Assembly (NCBI GenBank): GCA_013265495.1
Contig: MU058138.1
Span: forward strand, 3,921 to 67,920
Reading direction: 5' to 3'
DNA: 64,000 nucleotides
Source of the DNA: Vicugna vicugna
Lineage: Eukaryota
The number at the start of each line of letters is the position of its first letter. The stretch's first letter is position 1. Shown in pieces: positions 12,751-63,000 of this stretch. Below the pieces are notes generated by a model. That model saw only the letters and a program-made list of their open reading frames with translations, did no database searches and had not been told where the DNA came from. The position numbers and the translations under genes are program-made.

Positions 12751-13567
12751 GTTTTTTAATGCTTTACTATGAACATTGTATCAGAACAAATCATCTGGAT
12801 TTTGTCAATCTGACAAAAAGTATAGACATAGTTCAGGATAAAAAGAATAATATGTTCAAACATGGTTGCCGTGATAATTATAAATATCTGCATATAAAGG
12901 CCCATATCAAGCTGCCAGAACAGAATGGGCACATATTCCTTTATACTGTAGCAAACTTGACATGATCTACAATTTTAAATTATCTAATTTAAAAATATAA
13001 AAGAAATTATAAATATTAACATATCATTTAAAATATAATTAACCCATAATTCAAGATTATCAATCCACAAATTTATTTGTAATATGCTACATTTCTCTTT
13101 GTTGTTTGGGAAAATGGACAATAAATATCTTTCATGTTGTAATACTAACACCAAATACATACAAATATTCCAGCTAATTTCTGTGTTTTTTTCTAGCTTG
13201 ATTTTCTCAACTGAGACTTCATCCAATGAAAATATAAGATATTTAAGATTATAGCTATATTTAACAACATATCAGATGAATTTTCAGTGATTATCCCTTG
13301 TTAATTGTTTCAAGAACCCACCTCTTGGGTTTTTTCCTTTGTCTTTAAAGATTAGTGCTTCTTCCTCTAAGGGTAACTGCAGATACTTCGCGTATCTATG
13401 TGTGATCATAGAACACATAGTATTGTATGGCTGAGCAATGGATCTATAAATCATTTCAAATGGTCACACTTTCTGTACTTCCACACAATCTCCCCATCAC
13501 ATCAGTCTTTCAGGTAAATGTAGAAGCATCTGACATGGATGCCTAGAATATAAAGACACTGAAATAC

Positions 13568-14985
13568 AACAAAAACATCTGCCTTGCAAAGACAGTTGAA
13601 CACTCTCACCTGCTAGAAAAATTTCTGCAAAGAAAAACAAAGCTGCTGTTTGTGTGCATACTGGCCTAATTAGTGGAAATTAACTTGATTGAGCCCACTA
13701 TTGGCTGATATAAAAAAACTCAAAAATTTAAAAACACTGAAATTGGTTATTTGAATGTGTCTGTTCTCAGTTAATTATGGTAAGGTAACCAAAAATTACC
13801 TTACTTTGATAGAGGGTTTAGTCTAATATTCATATCTCTGGCCATTAATCTCTCTCTGCACCTAACAAGAGAAATTCTGGGATTTTTAACTTCTTGGATT
13901 AGCCAATGGCTGAGCATTTCACAGGCAATAGTAGACTCTTTAGGCTTCTGGTCATTGAAATAGCTTTTCCTTAAGGCTGCCTCATCCTTAATTAAAAGCA
14001 TGTTTCTACCTCTCCCCAATTTTATCTCAGAAAATTGGGAACTTCACAAACTTCTCAAACAATAAGTCTATGATGAGAAAATTAGATGTCTGGAAGATTA
14101 GATACCAATTGAGAATAAATTTCAGCCTGGGCAGAAGTTTGGGTTTTCAGAAATCTCCTGGGCTAATCTGTCAGAAAAAATTATTCTTCCATTTATATAT
14201 GCAGACACAGACTCTGACTTTTTTTCGTTACTATTTTATGTGAAAGAGAATATAAGGTCATTATAGATCCATTTATAACAAAAACATCTGCCTTGCAAAG
14301 ACAGTTGAACACTCTCACCTGCTAGAAAAATTTCTGCAAAGAAAAACAAAGCTGCTGTTTGTGTGCATACTGGCCTAATTAGTGGAAATTAACTTGATTG
14401 AGCCCACTATTGGCTGATATAAAAAAACTCAAAAATTTAAAAACACTGAAATTGGTTATTTGAATGTGTCTGTTCTCAGTTAATTATGGTAAGGTAACCA
14501 AAAATTACCTTACTTTGATAGAGGGTTTAGTCTAATATTCATATCTCTGGCCATTAATCTCTCTCTGCACCTAACAAGAGAAATTCTGGGATTTTTAACT
14601 TCTTGGAATAGCCAATGGCTGAGCATTTCACGGGCAATAGTAGACTCTTTAGGCTTCTGGTCATTTAAATAGCTTTTCCTTAAGGCTGCCTCATCCTTAA
14701 TTAAAAGCATGTTTCTACCTCTCCCCAATTTTATCTCAGAAAATTGGGAACTTCACAAACTTCTCAAACAATAAGTCTATGATGAGAAAATTAGATGTCT
14801 GGAAGATTAGATACCAATTGAGAATAAATTTCAGCCTGGGCAGAAGTTTGGGTTTTCAGAAATCTCCTGGGCTAATCTGTCAGAAAAAATTATTCTTCCA
14901 TTTATATATGCAGACACAGACTCTGACTTTTTTTCGTTACTATTTTATGTGAAAGAGAATATAAGGTCATTATAGATCCATTTAT
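13568..14985. repeat. 709-bp direct tandem duplication (13568-14276 and 14277-14985)
   Basis: Copies identical except for 3 substitutions seen by eye; duplicated 72-aa spurious ORFs (13801 and 14510) confirm the 709 offset. Confidence 0.95.
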
Positions 14986-15055
14986 AGACTATCTGGAACA
15001 AATTCAAATGAAGAAACCTCTAGACAGTTTTCTTCTTCAGAATAATCCCTAGAGA

Positions 15056-17661: not shown

Positions 17662-18316
17662 TCTAGGAATAGACTTACCATATGACCCAGGAATCCCACT
17701 CCCGGGCTTATATCCAGAAGGAGCCCTACTTCAGGATGACACCTGCACCCCAATGTTCATAGCAGCATTGTTCACAATAGCCAAGACATGGAAACAGCCT
17801 AAATATCTATCAAGAGATGACTGGATAAAGAAGAGGTGGTATATTTATACAATGGAATACTACTCAGCTATAAAAACCAACAACATAATGCCATTTGCAG
17901 CAACATGGATGCTCCTGGAGAATGTCATTTTAAGTGAAGTAAGCCAGAAAGAGAAAGAAAAATATCATATGAGATCGCTCATATGTGGAATCTAAGAAAC
18001 AAACAAACAAACAAAACATACAAAGCATAAATACAAAACAGAAATAGACTCACAGACATAGAATATAAACTTGTGGTTGCCTAGGGGGTGGGGGGGTGGA
18101 AGAGATAGACTGGGATTTCAAAATTGTAGAAATAGATAAACAAGACTATACTGTATAGCACAGGGAAATATATACAAGGTGTAATGGTAACTCACACAGA
18201 AAAAATGTGACAATGAATATATATATGTTCATGTATAACTGAAAAATTGTGCTCTACACTGGAATTTGACACAACATTGTAAAATGATTATAAATCAATA
18301 AAAAATGTTAAAAATA
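17662..18316 (+). mobile_element. 5'-truncated young L1 (ORF2 C-terminus plus 3' UTR), inserted in older L1 sequence
   Basis: ORF 17753-17995 MFIAALFTIAKTWKQPK...YYSAIK is the L1 ORF2 C-terminus; 3' UTR matches the L1 at 57.0-57.4 kb; ends aataaaaaatgttaaaaa. Confidence 0.92.
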
Positions 18317-18599
18317 AACCCAGTGCATTTCTAAATACCCCCTGGGTAAAATGAAACACAACAAAAATTAGAAAACACTTTGAGCTTAATGATAATGAAA
18401 ATACAACATATTAGAGCTTATTAGAGCTTATTAGTGTCAGCTAAATCTTACTTTCATATATTAGAAAATAATAAACCTCAAAAATCCAATGCTTTTGATT
18501 ATAAACATATATTCAAGAATTTATTAATGTAACACAAATATAAAGCCAAAATAATCAGTATGATGGAGGGAATAAAGATACAGACAGGTTTATGAATAC

Positions 18600-31211: not shown

Positions 31212-33017
31212 AAGAATAGGCATTTCTGATAAGGAATAGAAATGAAGGAGTCCTAGGCTTATGAGGTATCAAAGCATATTTTAAATCAAATGTAATCACA
31301 TCATATGCTTAAAAGTCACATGAATCACTGTAAGTTAATAGAGGCCTGATTTTTATCCAAGCACATACCATATTTTAGAATACAAAGTTGAGATATCAAG
31401 TCATGAGGAAAATACTATTGCACCTATAAAAATGACCTTGAATGATTCTTGAAAAATAATTAAAATGCAATCCCTACTTACATGGTTCAAAAATCTAAAT
31501 ATAAAATATAAAACAATAAAAAAATTTAAAAATTAAATGCTGAAAAAATGTGGGATATTTTAGTAATGGTGAAACAAGGAAATTCTTCCTAAACAAGACA
31601 TAAAAGCAAGAAAATATGGATAGATTTAATTATACAAATATAAACATATTTCTACATGGCCAAGAATATTCTGCACAGTATAGAAACAACAAAATCAAAT
31701 AACAAGCTAGAAGATAATTCCACATACATGGAAAAGGAAATCATTTCCTTAGTACATAAATAAATTCTAAAAATTGATACGGAAAAAAATCAGCAATCAA
31801 ATAAAACACATAAATCACTAATAGGCAATTCATGTAAATGAATACAAATCATTTTAAACATTTGAATAGGTACCCAAATTCAATTCTACTTATTTATAAT
31901 TAAAGTATACAAATGAAACACAATTTCCTTAATCAGACTGTTATATACCCAAAATATTTATCAAGCAATGGTTTTTGAGAATTCAGGCAAACAGATATTT
32001 TCCAGAATGAAGAGGGTAGTGAGTTTGATACAAGCTCATGGATGGCATTTTTTCAATAACTATGAACATCAACATTTTAAATACATAAACCAATTGACTC
32101 AACAATTCCACCACTGGGAACTCATACTTAGAAAATTTCAAAAAGACTTAATTGAAGAACTGCTTGTCATGGAGAAAGACTGAAGAAAGCATGAAGAAGA
32201 TGGATACATCAGTGTCACTGTATATTTATAAAGAAGTTAAGCAGTATGAGGAGACTGAGAATGAGGTAGATCTATAGATTGGTATATGAAGACGTCCAGG
32301 AGGCTGAGTATTAAATAGCAAAATTCATACACAGAGACATCATCACAAACACATCTATGAAAATACGCTAATTTTTGCAAAGATTATAACTTGAAGAATC
32401 TTAAGAACAGAGTGACTGCATTTGAAGAAATGGGAGATACTGCTATAGGAGGATTAAGAGATTTATTCTACATATTCCCTTTTGTATCAATTCTATTTTA
32501 ATATTTATTATTATCCACTATTTTCAGTTTCTTATTTTCAAAAGTAGAGTATTACACTAAAAATAGGATATGTAAAGCAAATGAAATTGAATAAAGAGGA
32601 AAGTCTGTACAGTATTAAATATTTTAACAAATATAGGAATGAAGATAAAAGACAGAAATCTGACTGACAACAAAAATAAGAATAAGAAAGTAAAAATAAA
32701 TACAGAAATTAACTAAAAAATAGTGCACCTCTATAATATTCATTGACTAATACATTGCATAACATTTGCTGACTCTCAACTGTAAATGCATTCCACCCTT
32801 CCAGATGCAGTGTTAAATTAGACACTATTAGAGTTTACATTTTAGCAGGGAAACTGTTACCAAATGCACAAGTATATACTTCATTCTTTAATTATAATTA
32901 TCATAAATCTCTTTAGAAAAGGACATTTTACTTCAGATTTATGAAGACTTTTACATTCCAAGGAGATTGGCCTTAATGCTAATTTTATTGCTTCATCATG
33001 GATGAAGCACTTATTTA

Positions 33018-33941
33018 CTACTTGATATGACATATTTTTCTCCAGAGTTTCTTCATAACATTAGTCATCTCAGAATTTCTTGGGCTGTAGATAAATGGGT
33101 TCAGCATGGGGCTTATGACTGTATAAAACACACTTAATGATTTGTCAACAGAGAACGTCTTAGCAGGTCTTGCATACATAAAAATAAAGGGAGCAAAGAA
33201 ACAGACAACCACAGGAATGTGGGAAACACAGGTCTGGAGGGCTTTCTGCCTCCCTTCCTGACTCAGGTTCTTTAGAGAGTGCAAGATGACTCCATAAGAG
33301 ATGAGTAAGAGCAGGAATAAAATACTGCACATCAGTCCTCCATTGGCCACCACTAAGATGCCAGTGACAAAGGTGTCAGTACAGACAAGTTTCAACAAGG
33401 GGAACATATCGCACATAAAGTGATCAATGACATTGGGGCCACAGAATGGGAGCACATAAATAGTACTAAGTTGAATAATTGAGTGCAGAAAACCTCCAAC
33501 ACAGGACACCACCAGCAACACAACACACACCCTTTGCCTCATGATAACCAAATAATGCAAAGGCTTACAAATGGCCATGTAGCAATCATAGGCCATCACC
33601 AACAGAAAAACAATCTCTGACCCACCAAAAAAGTGCTCAGTAAAAAGCTGAGTCATGCAAGATTCAAAGGATATGATGTTTTCCCCAAAGAAGAAGTCTG
33701 AAATAAATCTGGGGGAACTAGAATAGGAATAAATTAGATCTATAAATGATAAGCTAGCAAGAAAAAAGTACATTGGTGCATTGAGGGTCTTACTGACAGT
33801 AATTGTCACCACAATGAGCAGGCTGCCCACCACAGTCAAAATGTAGAAAAGCAAGAACATGACAATAAGGACTTTCTGCTTCTTTGGATTCTGTGTGAGG
33901 CCCAGGGGGATGAAATAAGTTACACTGTTCCTTGGTTCCAT
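33018..33941 (-). CDS. OR4A47: Olfactory receptor, OR4A47-like (open 307-aa single-exon CDS)
   Basis: Uninterrupted 7-[51 protein letters not shown]-terminus MEPRN and MYARPAKTF recall human OR4A47; the symbol denotes likeness, not proven 1:1 orthology. Confidence 0.9.
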
Positions 33942-34669
33942 CTAGTCTGTACAGGAGCTGACTTCACATATTAGAAGCAGTTTAGCTACAAAACAAGGGG
34001 GACAATACTTAAATGCATTGTAAGTATAATCCTTTATTTATCCATTCAATTAAAACAATTTGTATGGAGTATTTGTTTGTATCCAATGGATCATAGACAT
34101 GTGATTACCAAGTTGAATAAGGCAGAGTTTCTTATGCACAGTGATATGATACAAAATAGAGATTAGATCCATGTAATAAGTACCATTGTAAGGATATTCA
34201 CACAACACTAAGGTAACAGTGTAGGAATATATCAATCAAACTAAAATCAAAGAAAGTTTCCCAGAGAAAGGAATGCTTTAACTGAGTTTTAAATGAAAAA
34301 GTGAAAAAACAAAAGAAGATGGGAAGGGAATTCCCTAAAATAGTACACCATTTACAATGTCATAAAAGTGTAATAATTTAACTTCATTTAAGCTAAATTA
34401 CACATTCAGTGTGAGTAGATCAAATTATAAATAGAAGGTAACTGTCCTGAATTGTCTCAAACCACGCAGAAAATTCTTAGGGTTTATAGATGGATATTCC
34501 TCCTTTTCCTGACCAATAAATGCTGAAGCACTTTAATTTTGTGTCCCAATCTTCTATCTTTCCATTTATTTTTAACCTTGTATAGGCAGCATCTCCAATT
34601 TTTGGCATCTACAATTGGATATCAATTTAACCTACATAAAAATAATTTTAAAATTTTCTGTAATAAAAA

Positions 34670-42611: not shown

Positions 42612-43691
42612 NTTTCTTTAATCAGACTGAAATACTACAAATGTTTATCAACACTGGCTGTTGAGAATGTCATAAAAAGGTATTCTCCAGAATTAGGAAA
42701 GTAGTGAGTTTGGTACAAACTCATAGATGGCATTTTGTCAATAACTATGAACATCAACATTTTAAATGTATGTATCAATTGACTCAGCAATTCCACCGCT
42801 GGGAACTCAAACTTAAGAAATTTCAAAAAGACTTCATTGCAAAATTATTTGTCATAGAAGACTGAAGAAAACATGAAGGGGACTGGATTCATCGGTGTTA
42901 GTGATCTTTAAAAAGAAATTAAGCAGTTTGAAGAAACTGAGAGTGAGTTAGATCTGTAGACTGGTATATGAAGATGCTCAGGAGGCTGAGTAGTAAATAG
43001 CAAAATTTATACACAGAGACATCATTGTGAACACATATGTAAAAATATACATATTTTTGCAAATATTATTATTGGAAGAAACTTAGAGGATAATGACTGC
43101 ATCTGGAAAAACTGGAAGACTGTAATTTAGGATGAGTAGGAGGTTTATTCCAAGTTATTCCATTTTGCACAGATTTCATTTTTAATATGTATTATCATTA
43201 TTATCTATTAGCTTTCAATTTTTAATTTAGAAAATTAAATATTACACTAAAAATGTTATATTGAATAAAAGAATAATCTGTATAACATTAAACATTCTAA
43301 ATTTACAATAAAAACAATGAAGATAAGTGATAAGAATCTGAGTAACATAAAACTAAGAATGAGAAAGAATTAAAAGTAAATACAGCAATTAAGTAAAAAT
43401 TAATGAAACTCTATAAAATTGCATTGACTACTTTATTACACATCATTTACTGACTCCCTACTGTAAATGCATTCCAAACTTCTAGGTGCACTGATAAACC
43501 AGACATTATAGAGTTTATATTTTAGCAGGAAAGCTAGTATTAATAGCAGAAGGATACAGTTCATTTTTGAATTATAATGATCACAAATTCTTCAGAGAAA
43601 AGGAAAGCTTGCATCAGATTTATGAAGACTTTCATATTCCAAGGAGGCTAGTTCTAGTGCTAAATTCTTTCCTTTATGATGGATAATGTGC

Positions 43692-44620
43692 TTATTTATT
43701 ACTTGATCTCACTTTTTTTCTCCAGAGCTTCTTCATAGCATTAGTCATCTCAGAATTTCTTAGACTGTAGATAAATGGGTTCAGCACGGGGCTTATGACT
43801 GTATAAAACACATTTAAAAATTTGTCAATAGGGAAGGTCTTAGCAGGTCTTGCATACATGAAAATACAAGGAACAAAGAAGCAGACAACCACAGCAATGT
43901 GGGAAACACAGGTCTGGAGGGCTTTCCACCTCCCTTCCTGACTCAGGTTCTTTAGAGAGTGCAAGATGATTACATAAGAGATGAGTAAGAGCAGAAAAAA
44001 ATACTGCACATCAGTCCTCCATTGGCCACCACTAAGATGCCAGTGACAAAGGTGTCAGTACAGATGAGTTTCAACAAGGGGAACATATCACACATAAAAT
44101 GATCAATGACATTGGGGCCACAGAATGGGAGCACATAAATAGTGCCAAGATGAATTACTGAGTGCAGAAAACCTCCAACACAGGACACCACCAGCAACAC
44201 AACACACACCCTTTGCCTCATGATAACCAAATAATGCAAGGGCTTACAGATGGCCACATAGAAATCATAGGCCATCACCAACAGAAGAACAATCTCTGAC
44301 CCACCAAAAAAGTGTTCTGTAAAAAGCTGAGTCATGCAAGATTCAAAGGATATGGTGTTTTCCCCAAAGAAGAAGTCTGAAATCAATCTGGGGGAACTAG
44401 AAGAAGAATAAATTAGATCTATAAATGATAAGCTAGCAAGAAAAATGTACATCGATGAGTTCAGAGTCTTACTGACAGTAATTGTAACGACAATGAGCAG
44501 GTTACCCACCATAGTCAAAATGCTGAAAAGCAAGAACATGACAATAAGGAATTTCTGTTCCTTTGGATTCTGTGTGAGGCCCAAGAGAACAAAGTTAGTT
44601 ACATTTTTCCTTGGTTCCAT
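43692..44620 (-). pseudogene. OR4A47-like gene with a single 1-nt frameshift
   Basis: ORFs 43970-44620 and 43692-44009 join into a 309-aa OR if one base is restored in the A7 run at 43995-44001 (paralog 33311-33322 is one base longer). Confidence 0.88.
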
Positions 44621-45323
44621 TTAGTCTGTACACAAGCTGACTTCACATATTAGAAGCAGTTTACCTACAAAACAATGGGGGGACATTTAAATGCATTATA
44701 AGGTTAATCATTTTATCTACTCAATTAAAAGAATGTGTATGGAGTATTTGTTCATGTCCAATGTGCCATTGACATTGTGAATACCAAGTTGAATAAGGCA
44801 TCGTTCCCCAACGTCAGTGATAGGATACATGACAGGGGATCAGACAATTCCAGACCCATGTAATAAGTACCATTAAAAGGATATTCACACAATGCTAAGA
44901 GTGTAGGAATATGTCAAATAGTCAAAATGCTGAAAAGCAAGAACATGACAATAAGGAATTTCTGTTCCTTTGGATTCTGTGTGAGGCCCAAGAGAACAAA
45001 GTTAGTTACATTTTTCCTTGGTTCCATTTAGTCTGTACACAAGCTGACTTCACATATTAGAAGCAGTTTACCTACAAAACAATGGGGGACATTTAAATGC
45101 ATTATAAGGTTAATTGTTTTATCTATTCAATTAAAAGAATGTGTATGGAGTATTTGTTCATGTCCAATGTGCCATTGACATTGTGAATACCAAGTTGAAT
45201 AAGGCATCGTTCCCCAACGTCAGTGATAGGATACATGACAGGGGATCAGACAATTCCAGACCCATGTAATAAGTACCATTAAAAGGATATTCACACAATG
45301 CTAAGAGTGTAGGAATATGTCAA
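44511..45323. repeat. 407/406-bp direct tandem duplication covering the OR start codon and splice acceptor
   Basis: 44511-44917 versus 44918-45323; 3 substitutions and one G-run indel seen by eye. Confidence 0.95.
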
Positions 45324-48780: not shown

Positions 48781-49184
48781 AAAAGTGACCTTGTCAACTG
48801 GTTTATGATGTGAACATAAACTATGACACGATAGCCCAAAGTATATGCAAAGGTCATTTACATAAGCTACACCAGGGTAATTTGTTTGAGAGGTAAACAC
48901 ATCTTTCCAATAGCAAAATTACTACATTAAAATCTCTAGAACTGTATCCTGAGAATCTGCATTTTACAAGAACCTAATTCTGACAGTAAATTAAACAACC
49001 AATTGAGCAATACATAAATTTAAATAAAAATTTTATAATCGTAGGTAATTCCCTACCTGGACCCTCCTCAAAGCCTAGATGTCAACATCAACATACTTTT
49101 GATAAGCAGTGTTCAGCTGGCCCCAAACCATAAAACTGTCTTCTTTTCTCTTCTCGATTGAAAAGATAAAGTAGTTTTATTTTG

Positions 49185-49592
49185 GTTTGATTTCTCACAC
49201 TCCAGGACTTCTGGATAGCATTTTTCACCTCTAAATTTTGTATGTAGGTTTAAGCTTAGCAAAGGAATTATCATGACATAAATGTAGCCACAGCTTTACC
49301 AGTGAAGAAGGTGGTAGTTGGGTGCAAATATACAAATAATCAGGGCACAAAGACTAAGATGACCACAGTGATGTGAGAGACACATGTGAAGAGGGCTTTG
49401 CACCTCCCTCCAAGCTACAGGTCCTTAGGGAGCACAAGATTATCACACAGAAGACCATCATGAGGAAAAAACTGGGGAGATGAACTCACTATTGTCAGCA
49501 ACATAGAATCCCAGTGTATGTGTCCACACAGACAGTTTCAATAAAGGGTTAAAGTCTCACATGAAGGTTCTATGACATTGGAGCCACAGACT
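49185..49592 (-). pseudogene. Heavily degraded 3'-half OR remnant, OR4C-like (absent from the ORF track)
   Basis: Manual translation across frameshifts: CGSNVI...NPLLKL...HTLGFYVADNS...IILCSLRTCSL...CKALFTCVSHITVVILVFVP*LFVYLHP...EVKNAIQKSW. Confidence 0.85.
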
Positions 49593-53656: not shown

Positions 53657-53843
53657 TGTAGAATAGATAAATAAGATTATACTGTATAGCACAGGGAAAT
53701 ATATACAAGATCTTATGGTAGTTCACAGAGGAAAAAATGTGACAATGAATATATATATGTACATGTATAACTGAAAAATTGTGCTCTACATTGGAATTTG
53801 ACACATTGTACAATGATTATAACTCAGTAAAAAATGTTAAAAA
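53657..53843 (+). mobile_element. Short young L1 3' UTR insertion with TSD
   Basis: Matches 18125-18313; TSD aaaagatgaaaagc (53643-53656) / aaaagacaaaaagc (53844-53857); empty sites in paralogs near 36650 and 47620. Confidence 0.92.
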
Positions 53844-54789
53844 AAAAGACAAAAAGCAGCTACCAGGTGAAGCTCTGTTACTTGTGTTAAACTCCAACAT
53901 TGGAAAGAGCTCAGCAAGTTCAAGACACTGAAAAGTCATTGTGCCTGAAGAGAAATAAGAAAGGGAGTGGATAGAACAAACTGAGGTCAAAGAGGTGGAC
54001 AAGATACGATCTCTGCAGAGCACTACAGGTCTTGGTAAAGAATCTGGATTTCACTTAGTGCTCCTTTAAGGTTAGAGTAAGCAAAGTAAGACAAGCAATT
54101 TTTTTAGTTAAGGAAAATATCCATCTCATAAATAGACCTTTTGCCAAAGTTTACATTGTACGTGGCAAAACTAAGATTTGAACTCAGAATTATCTTTTTG
54201 AACACTAAGCTCTTTACCATCATAGTGTACTAAATTTTATCACCTATTCCTCAGCAATGTATGTATGATACATAAAATCCCAATCAACAAAGCAAAACTG
54301 GAAAAAGAGATTTTTAATCCAAATATACGTTTAAGATTATAATAACAATAAGTTTTCCACAAATAATACAGGAAAAACATGGTAGACTTTATATTTCAGA
54401 GGAAGAAATAGAAAATTAGAGAACCAGACAAGATATGCCAGAGTATTAGAAAGGATCAAAAGAGAAATTGGAAAATAAATACTCTAAAATTCCTATTTTC
54501 CCAAAATGCTTTATTTTGCTTTGCAATTTCATAGGTAGTGAACAATTGCATTTTAACAAGAAACAAAACTGGTTCTGATAGTACTTTAACATTTGACTAC
54601 CAAATTGGCAATAAAAACATCTAAATAGGCTATTTTTATAAGGATGATTTCCTGTTAAGGTCTCCTCAGATTGCCTAATGCCAACATCCACATACCTTTG
54701 ACAAATAGTGTGCCCTTGGCCCTGAAAATTAGGAATTATCTTCTTTAACTTGTAACCATTTGAGGGATAAAGTTATTTTACATTGTTTT

Positions 54790-55680
54790 CATTATTTCCC
54801 TGATGAAGTCATCTTTTGACTCAGAACTTCTCCATAGCATTTTTAACCTCTGCACATCTTAGGGTATAATAGAGTTTAACACAAAATTTAGCACAGTATA
54901 AAATATAGCCATGGCTTAATTAATTGAAAAAGTGATAATTTGAGGCAGATACATACATGTGCAAGGTACAAAGAATAAAATGACCAGAGCGATGTGAGAG
55001 GCTTAGGTGGAGTGTACTTTGCACCTACCATCCAAGCTATGAGATTTCAAAGTGTATAGGGTCATGATATAGGAGACCATCAAAAGGAGTAAGTTTAACA
55101 GAAAGATGACCCCTTTGTTGGTAGCAACAAAGAGACAAAAATATGACTGTCCATGTTGATAAGTTTCAACAGAGTTCATGTCACACACAAAGTGATCTAT
55201 GTCACTGGGGCCAAAAAAGGGTGCCAGACTGTGAAGAGGATTTAAACTGCTGGATGGATAAGTCTCCAGCCCAGGTGACTCCCAGAGATGACCACATCTC
55301 TATCAGCTTTTGGTGGTCAGGTAGTACAGATGGACACATAGAAGTCATAGGTCATACCCATCAGCAGAATGATGTCTTTATTCCATTGTGTGTTCTTGCC
55401 TCCTTTGTCGAAGTTTAGTTGACCAAAAATTTGTGGGTTCATTTCTGGGATCTCTATTCTGTTCCATTAGGCCATATATCTGTTTTTGTACCAGTACCAT
55501 ACTGTTTTGATTACTGTAGCTCTATAGTATTGTATGAAGTCTGGGAGAGTTATTCCTCCAGCCTCTTTCAGCAGCACCAAAAGATGTTCAGCAAAGTTTT
55601 AAGTCATGCACTTACTAAAACATGGTTTTCCTTACAGTAAGAGTGTCAGGACCTTGACGGGGTCAGGGAAGAAGAACAGC
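54790..55680 (-). pseudogene. 5'-truncated, degraded OR4C-like remnant interrupted by an L1 segment
   Basis: CMT*NFAEHL..GAA|insert|IILLMGMTYDFY; ATNKGVIFLLNLLLLMVSYIMTLYTLKSHSLDGRCK..ST*ASHIALVILFFVPC; YTLRCAEVKNAMEK. Confidence 0.88.
55373..55569 (-). mobile_element. 197-bp internal L1 ORF2 segment, near-identical to 58388-58584
   Basis: Ungapped match at offset 3015 with 2 mismatches (55450, 55474). Confidence 0.95.
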
Positions 55681-57017
55681 CACTATCTATGACGAATAAG
55701 TAACACATAAACAACATGTAAAGCATTACCAAAGAGTGTACAAAGGACTAAATGAAAACACCTAACTCTCTTCATGGAGAGGAATTCTCAAATCTCTAAA
55801 GATATAAACCCTTCCTAAATTAGTCATCCTAAATAAAAATGCATTGAAAAATAACAGAAATTTTTGTGACTAGCCTAGCTTATTATAAATTTAATTTGAT
55901 GTCCTAAATTTGCAAGAACAGACATAATGCTGGAAAAGAAGAGTAATGAGGGAGTGTTAGACTTATTATTCTAAATGTATTCTAGATGAATTGCAACTAT
56001 ATCATAAATTAAATGGTACATGACTGAAAAGACCAATGGAACTGAGTCCTGAACTGCATTCAAATATTTATGGAAATTTAGAATACAGTAATATGAGGAT
56101 TTCAAATTAGTGGTGAAAGATAATTAAGCAACTACAAAAAAAGGTCATTTAGAAAACAATAAAACACAATCTTCTTTAACTATATATGAAAATGAATTAT
56201 AATTTCTTTAATGAACCTTCTTGTCATATACCAAAAAATATTCACTGGTTGTTGAGAATGGGGACAAGCTGATAGTCTCAGACTATGGGCAGAATTGTAG
56301 GTACAACTTCATGAATGGCATTTTGGCAATAACTATGAATATCAACATTTAAATACATATTCCCTGTTGACCCAAAAGTTCTACTTATAGCAACTGACAT
56401 TTCTAGGAACACATACTTGAGAAGATATATACTTATTGCAGAATTATGTATCATAGAAAAAGATTGAAATGACATGAAAAGTACTGGGTGCATTAATTCA
56501 GGAATATTATAAGGGAACATCACATATTATACAAATAACTGAGCATGAGTTAGATCTATATAGAGTGGTATGAAAAGATGCTCAAGATGTTGAATAGTAA
56601 AATGTAAGTGTTTACATGCAGGCATATATCCACATACACATATGTAAATATGCTTATATGTGCAAAGATTGATACTTGAAACATCTTAAGAAAGAGGCTT
56701 TGCACTAACTCTAGGTAAGAACACTGGGAAACACTAAAAAGGATGAAAAAGAAGTTTGGTTTGGTTTGGTTTTGCAGGATGTTTTACTAAGCTTTCTAGG
56801 CAAAAATCATCCCAATTTTATATGAATACTTTCTCAACTCTTTTTGTAACTTGCCTTTTTACTTTCTTTCAGGTGTTTTTGTTGAACAAAAGTTCTTACT
56901 ATGGTCAAATTTATCATTCTTTCCTTCTTAGTTTGTTTAGAAATATTTTGAAAGGAGATTTATTTTTCACTTGCACCATTTCATATGGTTCCTATTTTTA
57001 TAATCATTATTATTGTA

Positions 57018-60000
57018 TTTTCTTTTTCATTTATTTTTTAAACATTTTTATTGAGTTATAGTCATTTTACAATGTTGTGTCAAATTCCAGTGTAGAGCAC
57101 AATTTTACAGTTATATGTGAACATACATATATTCATTGACACATATTTTTCACTGTGAGCTACCACAAGATCTTGTATATATTTCCCTGTGCTATACAGC
57201 ATAGTCTTGTTTATCTATTCTACATATGCCTATCAATATATACAAATTTTGGACTCATAGTCTATCCCTTTTTACCCCCCTCCTAGGCAACTACAAGTTT
57301 GTATTCTATACCTATGTGTCTTTATGTTTTGCATTTATGTTCTTCTTCTTTTTTTTTTAAGATTCCACATATGAGCAATATCATATGGTATTTTTTTTCT
57401 TTTTCTGGCTTACTTCATTTAGAATGACATATTCCATGAATAACCATGTTGCTGCAAATGGCATAATGTTGTTGGGTTTTATGGCTGAATAGTATTCCAT
57501 TGAATAAACATACCACAACTTCTTAATCCAGTCATCTGTTGATTGACATTAAGGCTGTTTCCATGTCTTGGCTATTGTAAATAGTGCTGCTATGAACATT
57601 GGGGTGCAGGTGTCATCCTGAAGTAGGGTTCCTTCTGGATATATGCCCAGGGTCAGTATTACTGGGTCATATGGTAAGTCTATTCCTAGCCTTTTGAGGA
57701 ATCTCCATACTGTTTTCCACAGTGGCTGCACCAAACTGCATTCCCACCAGCAGTGTAGGAGTGTTCCCCTTTCTCCACAGCATCCCCAGAATTTGTCATT
57801 TGTGGACTTTTGAATGATGGCCATTCTGACTGGTGTGAGGTGATGCCTTCTTCTAATTTTGATTTACATTTCTCTGATAATTAGTGATATTGAGCATTTT
57901 TTCGTGTGAGTATTGATCATTTGTATTTCTTCTTTGGAAAGTTTCTTGTTTAGGTCTTCTGCCCATTTTTGGATTGGGTTGTTTACTTTTTTTTTATTAA
58001 GTCATATGGACTGCTTATATATTCTGGAGATCAAGCCTTTGTCGGTTTCATTTGCAAAAATTTTCTCCCATTCTATAGGTTGTCATTTTGTTTTACTTAT
58101 GGTTTCCTTTGCTGTGCAGAAGCTTGTAAGTTTCATTAGGTCACATTTGTTTATTCTTGCTTTTATTTCTATTGCTAGAGTAGACTGTTCTAGGAGAACA
58201 TTTTTGAAATGTATGTCAGATAATGTTTTGCCTATATTTTCTTTTAGGAGGTTTATTGTATCTTGTCTTATGTTTAAGTCTTTGATCCATTTTGAGTTTA
58301 TTTTTGTGTATGGTGTAAGGGAGTGTTCTGGCTTCATTGATTTACATGCTGCTGTCCAGTTTCCCCAAAACCATTTGCTGAGGAGACTGTCTTTATTCCA
58401 TTGTGTGTTCTTGCCTCCTTTGTCGAAGTTTAGTTGACCAAAAATTTGTGGGTTCATTTCTGGGCTCTCTATTCTGTTCCATTAGGCCTTATATCTGTTT
58501 TTGTACCAGTACCATACTGTTTTGATTACTGTAGCTCTATAGTATTGTATGAAGTCTGGGAGAGTTATTCCTCCAGCCTCTTTCTTTTTCCTCAGTAATA
58601 TTTTGGCAATTCTAGGTTTTTTATGTTTCCACATAAATTTCATTATGGTTTGTTCTAGTTCTGTGAAATATGTCCTGGGTAATTTGGTAGGGATTGCATT
58701 AAATCTGTAGATTGTCTTGGGCAGTATGACCATTTTGACAATATTGATTCTTCCAATCTAGGAGTGTGATATGTCTCCATTTTTTTAAGTCTTCTTTAAT
58801 TTCTTTAATCAGTGTTTTATAGTTTTCCATGTATAAGTCTTTCACCTCCTTGGTTAGATTTATTTCTAGGTGTTTTATTAATTTGGGTGCTATTTTGAAA
58901 GGGATTGTTTCTTTACTTTCTTTTTCTGAGTTAGTGTAATGCAACTGATGTTTGAACTTTATTCTTGTAATCTGCTACATTGCTGAATTCTTCAATCAGC
59001 TCTAGTAGTTTTTGTGTGGAGCTTTTAGGGTTTTCTAGATTTAGTAACATGTCATTGGCATATGGTGACACTTTCATCTCTAGTTTTCAAATTTGGATCC
59101 CATTTATTTCTCTCTCTTGCCTGATTGCTGTGGCTAGGACTTCCAAGACTATGTTGAATAGCAGTGGTGATAGTGGGCATCCTTGTCTTGTTCCAGATTT
59201 TAGTGGGAAGCTTTTGAGTTTTTCACTGTTGAGTACTCTGCTGGCTGTAGGTTTGTCATATATAGCTTTTATGATGTTGAGATATGTTCCCTCTATACCC
59301 ACTTTGGTGAGAGTTTTTAATCATAAGTGGGTGTTGACTTTTATCAAATGCTTTTTCTACATCTATTGAGATGATCATGTGATTTTGTCCTTTCTCTTGT
59401 TGATGTGATGTATTACATTGATTGATTTGCATATGTTGAACCACCCTTATGTCCCTGGGATGAACCCCACTTGGTCATGATGTATAATCTTTTTTATGTG
59501 TTGTAGGATTCTATTTGCTAATATTTTGGTGAGGATTTTGGCATCTATGTTCATCAGTGATATTGACCTATAATTCTCTTTTTTGGTAGTGTCTTTGCCT
59601 GGTTTTGGTATCAGGGCGATGGTGGCTTCATAGAATGAGTTTGGGAGTATTCCATCCTTTTCAATCTTCTGGAAGAGTTTGAGAAGGACTGGTATGAGTT
59701 CTTCTTTGTATGTTTTGTAGAATTCCCCAGTAAAGCTGTCTGGTCCTGGACTTTTATTTGTAGCGAGGCTTTTTATTGCTAATTCAACTTTATTTCTAGT
59801 GATTGGTTTGTTCAAGTGGTCAGTTTCTTCTTGAATCAGTCTTGGTGGACTGTATGTTTCCAGAAATTTGTCCATGTCCTCTAGGTTATCCATTTTGGTC
59901 CGATATAGTTTTTCATAATATTCTCATATGATATTCTATATTTCTATGTTACTTGTAATTTTTTTCATTTTCCTTTCTTATTTTGCTTATTTGTGCTCCC

Positions 60001-63000
60001 TATTTTTTCTTCTTTGTGAGTTTGTCCAGAGGTTTGTCAATTTTATTTACTGTTTCAAAAAAACAGCTTTTGGTTTGATTGATATTTTCTATTGTTTTTT
60101 AATCTCTGTTTTATTTATTTCCTCCCTGATCTTTATTATTTCCTTCCTTCTTCTGACTTTTGGGGGTTTTTTTGCTCTTCTTTTTCTAGTTCTTTAAGCT
60201 GTTGGGTTAGATTGTTTATTTGAGATCGTTCTTCTTTTTTGAGGAAAGCCTATATCACTATAAACTTCCCTCTTGGCACTGCCTTTGCTGTGGCCCATTA
60301 ATTTTGTGTGGTTGTGTTTTCATTTTCATTTTCTCAAGTTATTTTGTTAATTTCAATTTTGATTTCCTCATTGAACCATTGGCTTTTTAATAGCATGTTG
60401 TTTAATCTCCATGCTTTCCTTTTTTTGTCCTTTGTTTCTCTGTAGTTGATTTCTACTTTCATGGCATTGTGATCAGTAAAGACGCTTGAGATAATTTCTA
60501 GCTTCTTAAAATTGTTGAGGCTTCTTTTGTGCCCAAGTACATGATCAATCCTAGAAAATGTTCCATGTGTACTTGAAAAGAATGTGTATCCTATTTTTGG
60601 GAGCTGTGATGCTCTGAAAATATCCACCAACTCTAATTTTTCTATTGTATCATTTAATTTCTCTGTTGCCTTATTTAGTTTCTATCTGGAAGACCTATCT
60701 GGTGATGTCAATGTGGTCTTAAAATCTCCAACAATGATTGTATTCCCATCAATTTCCCCTTTTATCTGTGTTAGTAATTTTTTTTATGAACTTAGGTGCT
60801 CCTATACTGGGTGCATATATATTAATGAGTATAATATCCTCATCTGTATTACTTCTTTAATCATTATAAAATGTCCTTCTCTCTTTCTTTATGTCCTTTC
60901 TTATAAGTCCATTTTGTCTGAAATCAGTACTGCAACACCTGCTTTTTTTGCTTTTCCATTTACATGGAATATCCTTTTCCATCCTTTCACTCTCAATCTA
61001 TATGTGTCCTTCTCCCTAAAGTGGGTCTCTTGTATGCAGCATATTGAAGGTTCTTGCTTTATTATCCAGTCTACCACTCTATGTCTTTTGACTGGCACTT
61101 TTAGTCCATTAACATTTACAGTAATTAATGATAGATGTGTGTTTATTGCCATTTTGAACTTATTTTTGCAGTTGACTTGGTATTTCCTCTCTGTTCCTTT
61201 CTTCTTCCTTTTGTGGTTTGGTAATTTTTCTTTGTATTATCTTGGACTTTATTTAGTTTTTGTGACTCATATGTAAGTTTTTGGCTTGTGGTTTCCCTTT
61301 TGTGCATCTATTAACCCATCACTATAACTGTTTTTATTAAGCAGATAGTAATATAATCTCAAACTCATCCTACCGACAACAAAAAACTTAAAAAAGCAAA
61401 ATAATTACTCTATATTTTCTTGCTTCCCTCTCCACTCTTAATGATTTAGATGTCTTCTACAATTTTGTGTTTATTCTATTTGGAATTCATGATAGTTATC
61501 ACCTTTCCAGTTATGGATTTCTCATTTCTGTAGCATCCTGCTTCTTTTCTATTTAGAGTAGACTTGTCAATATTTCCTTTTAGCATGGGTTTAGTGTTGC
61601 TGAACTCTTGTTGCTGTTTCTTGTCTGTAAAGTTCTTTACCTCTACTTCTATCCTAAAGAATAGCCTTGCTGGATAAAGATATTTAGAGTAGACTTGTCA
61701 ATATTTCTTTTAGCATGGGTTTAGTGTTGCTAAACTCTTGATGTTTCTTGTCTGTAAAATTCTTTACCTCTACTTCTATCCTAAAGGATAGCCTTGCTGG
61801 ATAAAGTATCCTAGGCTGTCTCTTTTTTTCATTCAGGGCTGTGACTATATCTTGCCACTCCCTTCTGGCCTGTAGTGTTTGTGTAGAGAAATCAGCTGAG
61901 AGCCTTATGGGGGTTCTTTTGTAACTCACTCTTTGCTTTTCTCCTGCTACCTTTAGGATCATTTCTTTATCCTTGACTCTGGCCATCTTGATTATGATAT
62001 GTCTTGGATGGTGTGAGTTGAGTTCTTCCTGTTTGGGACCCTCTGAGCTTCCTGTACTTGGATATCTGATTCCTTCTTTAAGTTTGGGTAGTTTTCCGTC
62101 ATGATTTCTTCAAATACCTTTTCAATTCCCTTTGTTCTTTTATCCCATTTTGGAACCCCTATTATGTGTAGATTTGCATGCTTTATATTATCCCATAGGT
62201 CCCTTATATTATTTTCATTATTTTTAATTTGTTTTTCTCTCAGCTGTTCTGATTGATTGCTTTCTGCCATCCTGTCTTCTAGGTCACTTATTTGTTCCTT
62301 TGCATTATCTAGCTTGTTTTGTACAGCCTTTAGATCAGAGTTCATCTCTGCAAATGAGTTTACCAATTCTACTTGACTCTTCTTTATAGCTTCAATTTCA
62401 TTTTTGACATATTTTATATCTCTAAACACTATCTCTCCTTCAATACTTTGATCATTCCTTTTTTGAAATCTTCATCTAGTAGGCTATCAATGTCTATTTC
62501 ATTGATTGTTCTTTCAGGGGATTTCTCTTGTTCTTTTAATTGGGAGTGGTTCCTCTGCTTCTTCATATTGCTCATATCTCTCTGGCACTGTGGCTTATAG
62601 AGTATCAGTTATGTATTGTGGTCCTTAAGGAGTTTATTTATTTATTTATCTAAAGCCTATGCAGGAATAAAACTTTTAAAAAGAGAGAGATTTTTAAAAG
62701 AAGGGAGGAAAAAAGTTTAAAAACAGTATATAATCAATAATAGAAGAGCAACTTGAAGCAGAATAGCAATTGAGTTGATATGTTTTTTAAAACATTAAAA
62801 AAGGAGAAAAAAATAAAAAAACAATAATTGAAACCTGTTTATAATCTATAACAGGAGATCAAAACCAAGAGAAATAAAAATGAAATGAGGTGGCTTTTAA
62901 AAATAATAATAATAAAAAATTTGAAAAGAAAAATTTAAAGGAATTAAAAATGTAGTTATATAGAATTGTTTAAAATGTAAAGATTAAAAAGGCAATAAAA

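Follow-up and report, generated by a model that had tools for sequence, protein, structure and literature searches.

A pseudogene remnant of the OR4 type of olfactory receptor (OR) gene is interrupted by an internal segment of an L1 element, and the L1 from which this segment appears to have been copied is still present, in decayed form, only a few kilobases away. The arrangement is best read as a locally templated insertion, which is a class already described. We hold with middling confidence that it is a real and young insertion of the copy-paste type, made in a single germ-line event wherein end-primed synthesis or a template switch used the nearby L1 as its template and end joining then completed the repair. 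The coordinates of the features on which this reading depends are collected in Table 1, and 'the window' refers throughout to the whole stretch of 64,000 nucleotides that was analysed.

Table 1. Positions of the insert, its donor, the target pseudogene and the junction features within the window
Feature	Position	Strand or state	Basis
Inserted copy, internal L1 ORF2 segment	55373..55569	minus	195/197 to donor; in frame with donor ORF2, 65 codons
Donor (template) segment in neighbouring L1	58388..58584	minus	intact; ungapped comparison
Near full-length decayed L1	57030..64000, runs off window edge	minus	3' end near 57030; three-frame translation
Shared in-frame TAA	55467-55469 = 58482-58484	minus	column is Q in 113/120 ORF2 homologues
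Difference between copies	55450 A / 58465 C	insert derived, donor ancestral	old L1 paralogue has the donor's base; S in 91/120 homologues
Difference between copies	55474 A / 58489 T	insert ancestral, donor derived	donor K in 0/118 homologues that have a residue in this column; old paralogue has the insert's base
Upstream part of the OR4-type pseudogene remnant, roughly TM2 to the beginning of TM3	55570..55715	minus	alignment to window OR paralogues
OR4-type pseudogene remnant downstream of insert, TM3 to C-terminus	54811..55372	minus	3-4 stops plus frameshifts
7-bp direct repeat	55361..55367, again 55568-55574	minus	OR codons on both sides
AATAAA hexamer	55377..55382	minus	at most 4 nt from insert 3' end (L1 sense); no poly(A) following

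The window is part of an OR cluster of a South American camelid. An intact OR frame of 307 amino acids lies on the minus strand at 33021-33941, resembles OR4A47 and has a Pfam 7tm_4 match. Its protein is 99% identical to an OR4A47-like protein of Vicugna pacos and 91% identical to the closest one of Camelus dromedarius. No other OR reading frame of full length was found in the window, since stops or frameshifts interrupt the remaining OR copies, which are near 10, 24, 44, 49, 50 and 55 kb. Among them, the decayed remnant at 49064-49417 is 66% like the insert-bearing one (54662-55039), with its 5' half seemingly missing. An old duplication of the cluster pairs 31924-34235 with 42613-44917 (2.3 kb at 83%), and a third copy is located near 49.9-51.6 kb.

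Two tandem pairs in the window are far more similar. The first, at 13565-14986, has a period of 709 bp and 99% identity with 4 differences, and stops about 70 bp before an N gap; either the duplication is very young or two alleles have been falsely placed in tandem. The second, at 44511-45323, has a period of 406-407 bp and 99% identity with 3 substitutions and 1 indel, and takes in upstream DNA as well as the beginning of the OR gene located at 44620; it is either a young duplication or an assembly artefact. There are four N gaps in the window, and the one nearest to the insert ends at 42612.

The insert and its template

The insert and the donor segment are on the same strand and 3,015 bp apart, and an ungapped comparison finds 195 of their 197 bases equal without any gap, which is the match that the original prediction had given. 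Identity ends sharply on both sides, beyond which the flanks are unrelated. When the window was aligned to itself (E<=1e-5), this was the only non-tandem pair of at least 95% identity, two further such pairs being tandem, and a search within the window for the exact 16-mers of the insert found none besides those in the donor. The length of 197 bp that had been claimed for the insertion stands for the matched segment, whereas the net gain is 193 bp, since the larger figure counts junction bases as well.

Given that the donor segment is intact, the event was of the copy-paste kind, and given a pairwise divergence of just 1.0% (95% interval 0.12-3.7%), the insert is far younger than its donor. 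The insertion could even be very recent if the donor is polymorphic. The polarity of the two differences was read against an old L1 paralogue near 40.2-40.65 kb of the window, and one derived base falls to each copy, as would be expected after a real duplication. The difference-free runs that reach the junctions are 77 bp and 95 bp long.

The donor L1 retains a GC-rich 5' region and remnants of ORF1 and ORF2 with many stops and frameshifts, including 4-5 stops per ~330 codons in the 3' part of ORF2. Pfam matches were obtained for RVT_1 at 59450-59923 and for L1 ORF1 domains at 61995-62471. A 127-bp tandem duplication (61550-61806, 93%) inside this element, at the end of ORF1, predates the insert. 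Two 5'-truncated copies of the same L1 family are present on the plus strand at 17663-18318 and 53657-53856, and these are 82-90% identical to each other and to the 3' end of the donor.

A three-way alignment of these same-family 3' ends assigns 14 private changes per 197 columns (~7%) to the donor, and 8 and 11 to the other two copies, at a rate measured at the L1 3' end and not in ORF2. Because the donor is privately changed to this extent, a consensus-like source should differ from it at ~14 sites. The chance of two or fewer differences is P ~8e-5 at 7%, the value for such a source, and 7e-11 at 14%, the value for independent copies.

The in-frame TAA that the original prediction had reported in both copies, in place of a glutamine, is indeed shared and does fall in a Q column. 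The insert also has in common with the donor the rare residues A88 (in none of 118 ORF2 homologues) and N107 (in none of 120), although the homologues are at most 72% identical and mostly of non-camelid or unspecified origin, such that some residues counted as private may be family-wide. That no stop occurs in the 120 homologues is trivial, because these are open reading frames. The template call therefore draws on the neighbouring residues and on DNA divergence, not on the stop that the homologues lack, and the old L1 paralogue, which carries a third base at 58484, says nothing about the stop.

On these comparisons it is well supported, within the window, that the template was the neighbouring decayed L1, or else a duplicate made from that element at the DNA level. 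The proposal that this particular inactivated L1 served as the template is thus upheld by the private changes and the shared rare residues, with the amendment that a duplicate of the same element would also fit.

The target pseudogene and the junctions

The OR remnant is ~35-38% identical to intact OR4A proteins and contains several stops and frameshifts outside the insert. Its upstream part has a stop and frameshifts of its own, as judged from tblastn pieces in different frames, and neither TM1 nor a start codon was recognised there. No intact orthologue was found at E<=0.001 among 120 candidates. From this state of decay, the OR gene had presumably been dead long before an insertion with only 1% divergence arrived.

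We placed the junctions by pairwise alignment of each flank to the OR paralogues of the window, and both flanks meet at the same codon. Among 120 OR4A proteins examined, the MAYD motif was found in 112, and all but one of these (111) have 12 residues from an H to the motif's M; the remnant shows the same spacing once 193 bp are removed. The OR thus resumes in register on either side of the insert, as originally predicted. Since register is kept, the net insertion amounts to 193 bp, the target having lost 0-1 bp or gained a duplication of at most 2 bp, and the two jumps share a breakpoint within 2 bp.

The absence of a poly(A) tail, of an L1 3' end and of a long target-site duplication (TSD), which the original prediction had also noted, is evident from our analysis: the insert is an internal ORF2 segment with neither end nor tail, any duplication at the target is of at most 2 bp, and there is no TTTT/A endonuclease site at the target. 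With no poly(A), no true TSD and no such site, the earlier conclusion that this was not normal target-primed insertion (TPRT) is supported. The 7-bp repeat near the junctions was weighed as a TSD and rejected. It is coded by the OR, whose codon register depends on both copies, and under a TSD reading OR codons would have had to be regenerated from five untemplated bases.

The microhomology claimed for the junctions fares less well. The proposed TGTC and TC (4+2) would need the target codon GAC, for Asp, whereas the break position in 112 OR4A proteins holds E in 93 cases, G in 18 and S in one, and never D. A GAC codon is therefore unlikely and Glu is likely. The homology comes to 3+1, 2+1 or 2+4 bp depending on the original target codon, and the OR4A residues suggest that it was probably not 4+2 but 3+1 bp, as GAA would give, or 2+1 bp with the loss of one base, as GAG would give. 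Homologies of the likely 1-3 bp are near the chance level (P ~0.48 for at least 1 bp, ~0.07 for at least 3 bp), and for this reason repair mediated by microhomology, as originally envisaged, is not established.

Several histories other than one insertion from the neighbouring element can be set against these junctions. The template may have been a near-identical L1 duplicate elsewhere in the OR cluster, conversion by the neighbour may have overwritten an older L1 fragment, or a separate deletion may have come after a tandem duplication of 3 kb. The cluster has undergone local duplication before, as with the 83% pair at 31.9-34.2 and 42.6-44.9 kb, and for one human locus conversion inside such an L1 insertion has been put forward (PMC1920257). 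However, with identity extending to both junctions, conversion would have had to run from end to end. A separate deletion would have had to strike the duplication breakpoint within 2 bp over a 3-kb span. One coupled event is far simpler than duplication plus independent deletion, and we judge this whole set of histories to be highly improbable.

Mechanism, reality of the junctions and significance

We infer a single event that used a DNA template and end-primed synthesis. The present arrangement can be written as A-C-B-C-D: the copying end jumped 3 kb forward, ~190 nt were copied, and the return was to within 2 bp of the start. In the mechanism that we propose, a break or a stalled fork would have occurred inside the already dead OR4 pseudogene, and one DNA end would have switched, via 1-3 matching bases, to the decayed L1 located 3 kb away on the same chromosome. 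About 190 nt of the L1 would then have been copied before release, and rejoining to the other end would have taken place with 0-2 bp gained or lost. The copying may have proceeded by template switch or by end-primed synthesis, with end joining as the finishing step.

A free piece of DNA might have served instead of a tethered template. An over-replicated piece or a long 5' flap of ~190 nt, derived from the neighbouring L1 in the same replicon, would be end-joined into a nearby break without strand invasion. This route is in keeping with the near-chance microhomology, the lack of target loss and the intact donor. Moreover, yeast dna2 mutants accumulate copy-paste insertions with a similar median of 187 bp, for which NHEJ capture of extrachromosomal fragments is one of three mechanisms proposed (PMC11724301). 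We nonetheless consider it unlikely, since the captured fragments described in that source are genome-wide in origin, and a tethered template switch would explain the 3-kb distance more simply. The preference for a primed-synthesis step over capture is a weak one, because the microhomology is near chance, and the repair routes are inseparable from a single locus.

The template could also have been RNA. With the proteins supplied in trans, a transcript of the dead L1, perhaps one that reads into the OR, would undergo reverse transcription at a break, to give a patch of the endonuclease-independent L1 type or of the kind known as class 2 TSI. The L1 and the OR share a strand and the OR is downstream, the GC-rich 5' region of the L1 is present, AATAAA occurs at the 3' end of the insert, and class 2 TSIs of this size have been argued to derive from RNA (PMC5110952). 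Yet the donor is unable to encode ORF2, and the AATAAA has no poly(A) after it. This hexamer is probably there by chance, as it occurs 19 times in 3,700 bp of the donor sense strand, or about once per 195 bp. In addition, TSI templates are described as distant rather than nearby (PMC5110952), and target deletions accompany 18 of 21 non-classical L1 insertions (PMC1920257), compared with the 0-1 bp lost here. Thus, we regard an RNA-templated patch as quite unlikely, and DNA-templated synthesis from the nearby L1 is the reading that we carry forward.

Both junctions are read from the assembly, and we have weighed the prospect that a false join or gap fill placed in the OR some reads that belong to the L1 3 kb distant. 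The assembly is a gapped draft with N runs, and in the two tandem pairs (709 and 406 bp, 99% identity) alleles may have been falsely duplicated, in which case a divergence of 1% would be at the allelic level. However, the two junctions have overlaps of at most 4 bp and restore the OR register exactly, and assemblers that rely on k-mers or overlaps are not known to make pairs of junctions of this kind. No N gap is located within 12 kb of the insert, and the insert carries the ancestral base at one of the two differences, which read error would not predict. An artefact seems improbable to us on balance.

Public sequencing runs bear on the same issue. The region 54500-56300 is present in 20 of the 24 public runs listed (8 studies, three organisms), at shares of 0.89-0.93 of 194 sampled words. 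The ceiling for an empty site plus the donor is 0.938, each SNP costs 0.0175, and the loss of all words that touch the insert would reduce the share to 0.872. That no run exceeds 0.93, a value close to the empty-site ceiling, is mild evidence against a fixed allele and fits a rare allele or an artefact. The same shares could also arise from SNPs, or by L1 words lost in contig simplification or from the index. Logan contigs are simplified with SPAdes-like heuristics (PMC12424806), and this step could drop one of two near-identical paths.

Taken alone, the insertion matters little, in that it is a neutral repair scar without function in an OR copy that had died beforehand. It is of value as a clean example, since the template is an old L1 with private mutations and the source can thus be assigned to a single copy. 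Repeat annotation would score the insert as an L1 insertion, and a tail-less internal L1 fragment need not stem from retrotransposition. If polymorphic, the insertion would provide a presence/absence marker for South American camelids.

A broader interpretation, which we consider doubtful at present, is that the insert is a fossil left in the germ line when DNA was copied between a break and its nearest dead L1, by way of a template switch or of the capture of an over-replicated fragment of Okazaki size that arose in the same replicon. If this were true and such events were common, a considerable fraction of the internal L1 fragments without tails that are currently classed as endonuclease-independent retrotransposition would have been copied locally, at the DNA level, from decayed neighbours. 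Each such copy would be recognisable by the private mutations of its neighbour, and jointly the copies would record template distance and size in germline break repair across the genome.

Comparison with known systems

No paper on this locus was among the literature matches listed, and the insertion is compared here with described classes. Classical L1 insertion by TPRT needs a 3' end with poly(A) and a TSD at TTTT/A, and the insert has neither. Microinsertions at human deletion breakpoints were reportedly found by Abyzov et al. in 2015 to have a template distance with a mode of a few kb. The distance of 3,015 bp resembles this, but nothing has been deleted here.

Non-classical L1 insertions (NCLI; Sen et al. 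2007, PMC1920257) share several features with the insert, namely a 3'-truncated piece of L1 that lacks poly(A), a TSD and an endonuclease site. They derive, however, from RNA of L1s of young, active subfamilies, whereas the insert bears the private decay of one neighbouring dead copy (PMC1920257). In the same source, the NCLI show target deletion in 18 of 21 cases and extra non-L1 DNA in 15 of 21, and the present locus has neither and has kept its register.

Class 2 templated sequence insertions and polymorphisms (TSI/TSIP), as described by Onozawa and Aplan (PMC5110952), are defined by the lack of a TSD of at least 5 bp, of a poly(A) tract and of any polyadenylation signal of the cryptic kind, and have a median length of 191 bp (range 73-414). 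The insert shares with this class the absence of such a TSD and of poly(A), an intact donor, and a net gain of 193 bp that is close to the median. End-joining junctions are also shared, with 1-4 bp of homology and 0-1 bp of loss here, and partial L1 sequences are among the templates known for the class (PMC5110952). In class 1 TSI, the polyadenylation signal is located 10-20 nt from the end, in contrast to the AATAAA at most 4 nt from the end and the missing tail seen here (PMC5110952). One further point separates the insert from class 2, in that the templates of that class are distant, unlike the one 3,015 bp away in our case. The class is polymorphic, with an empty allele, and argued to be RNA-derived (PMC5110952). 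An empty allele here would be compatible with the word shares in the public runs, as SNPs would be, and the insert has no intron or tail that would mark RNA.

Locally templated insertions have been observed in both human germline and cancer genomes (PMC8421209; PMC7025897). The germline template-switch insertions attributed to MMBIR carry short microhomology (PMC8421209), and here the homology is near chance. The local two-jump classes named in one of these studies involve inversions (PMC7025897), whereas this 3-kb jump is in direct orientation. Local copy-paste insertions have also been described together with a model of end-primed synthesis and NHEJ (PMC11724301; PMC7025897). With the templated insertions of the MMBIR/FoSTeS type (PMC8421209) and with the local two-jumps (PMC7025897), the insert has in common a local template, a gain of copy and two tightly grouped junctions.
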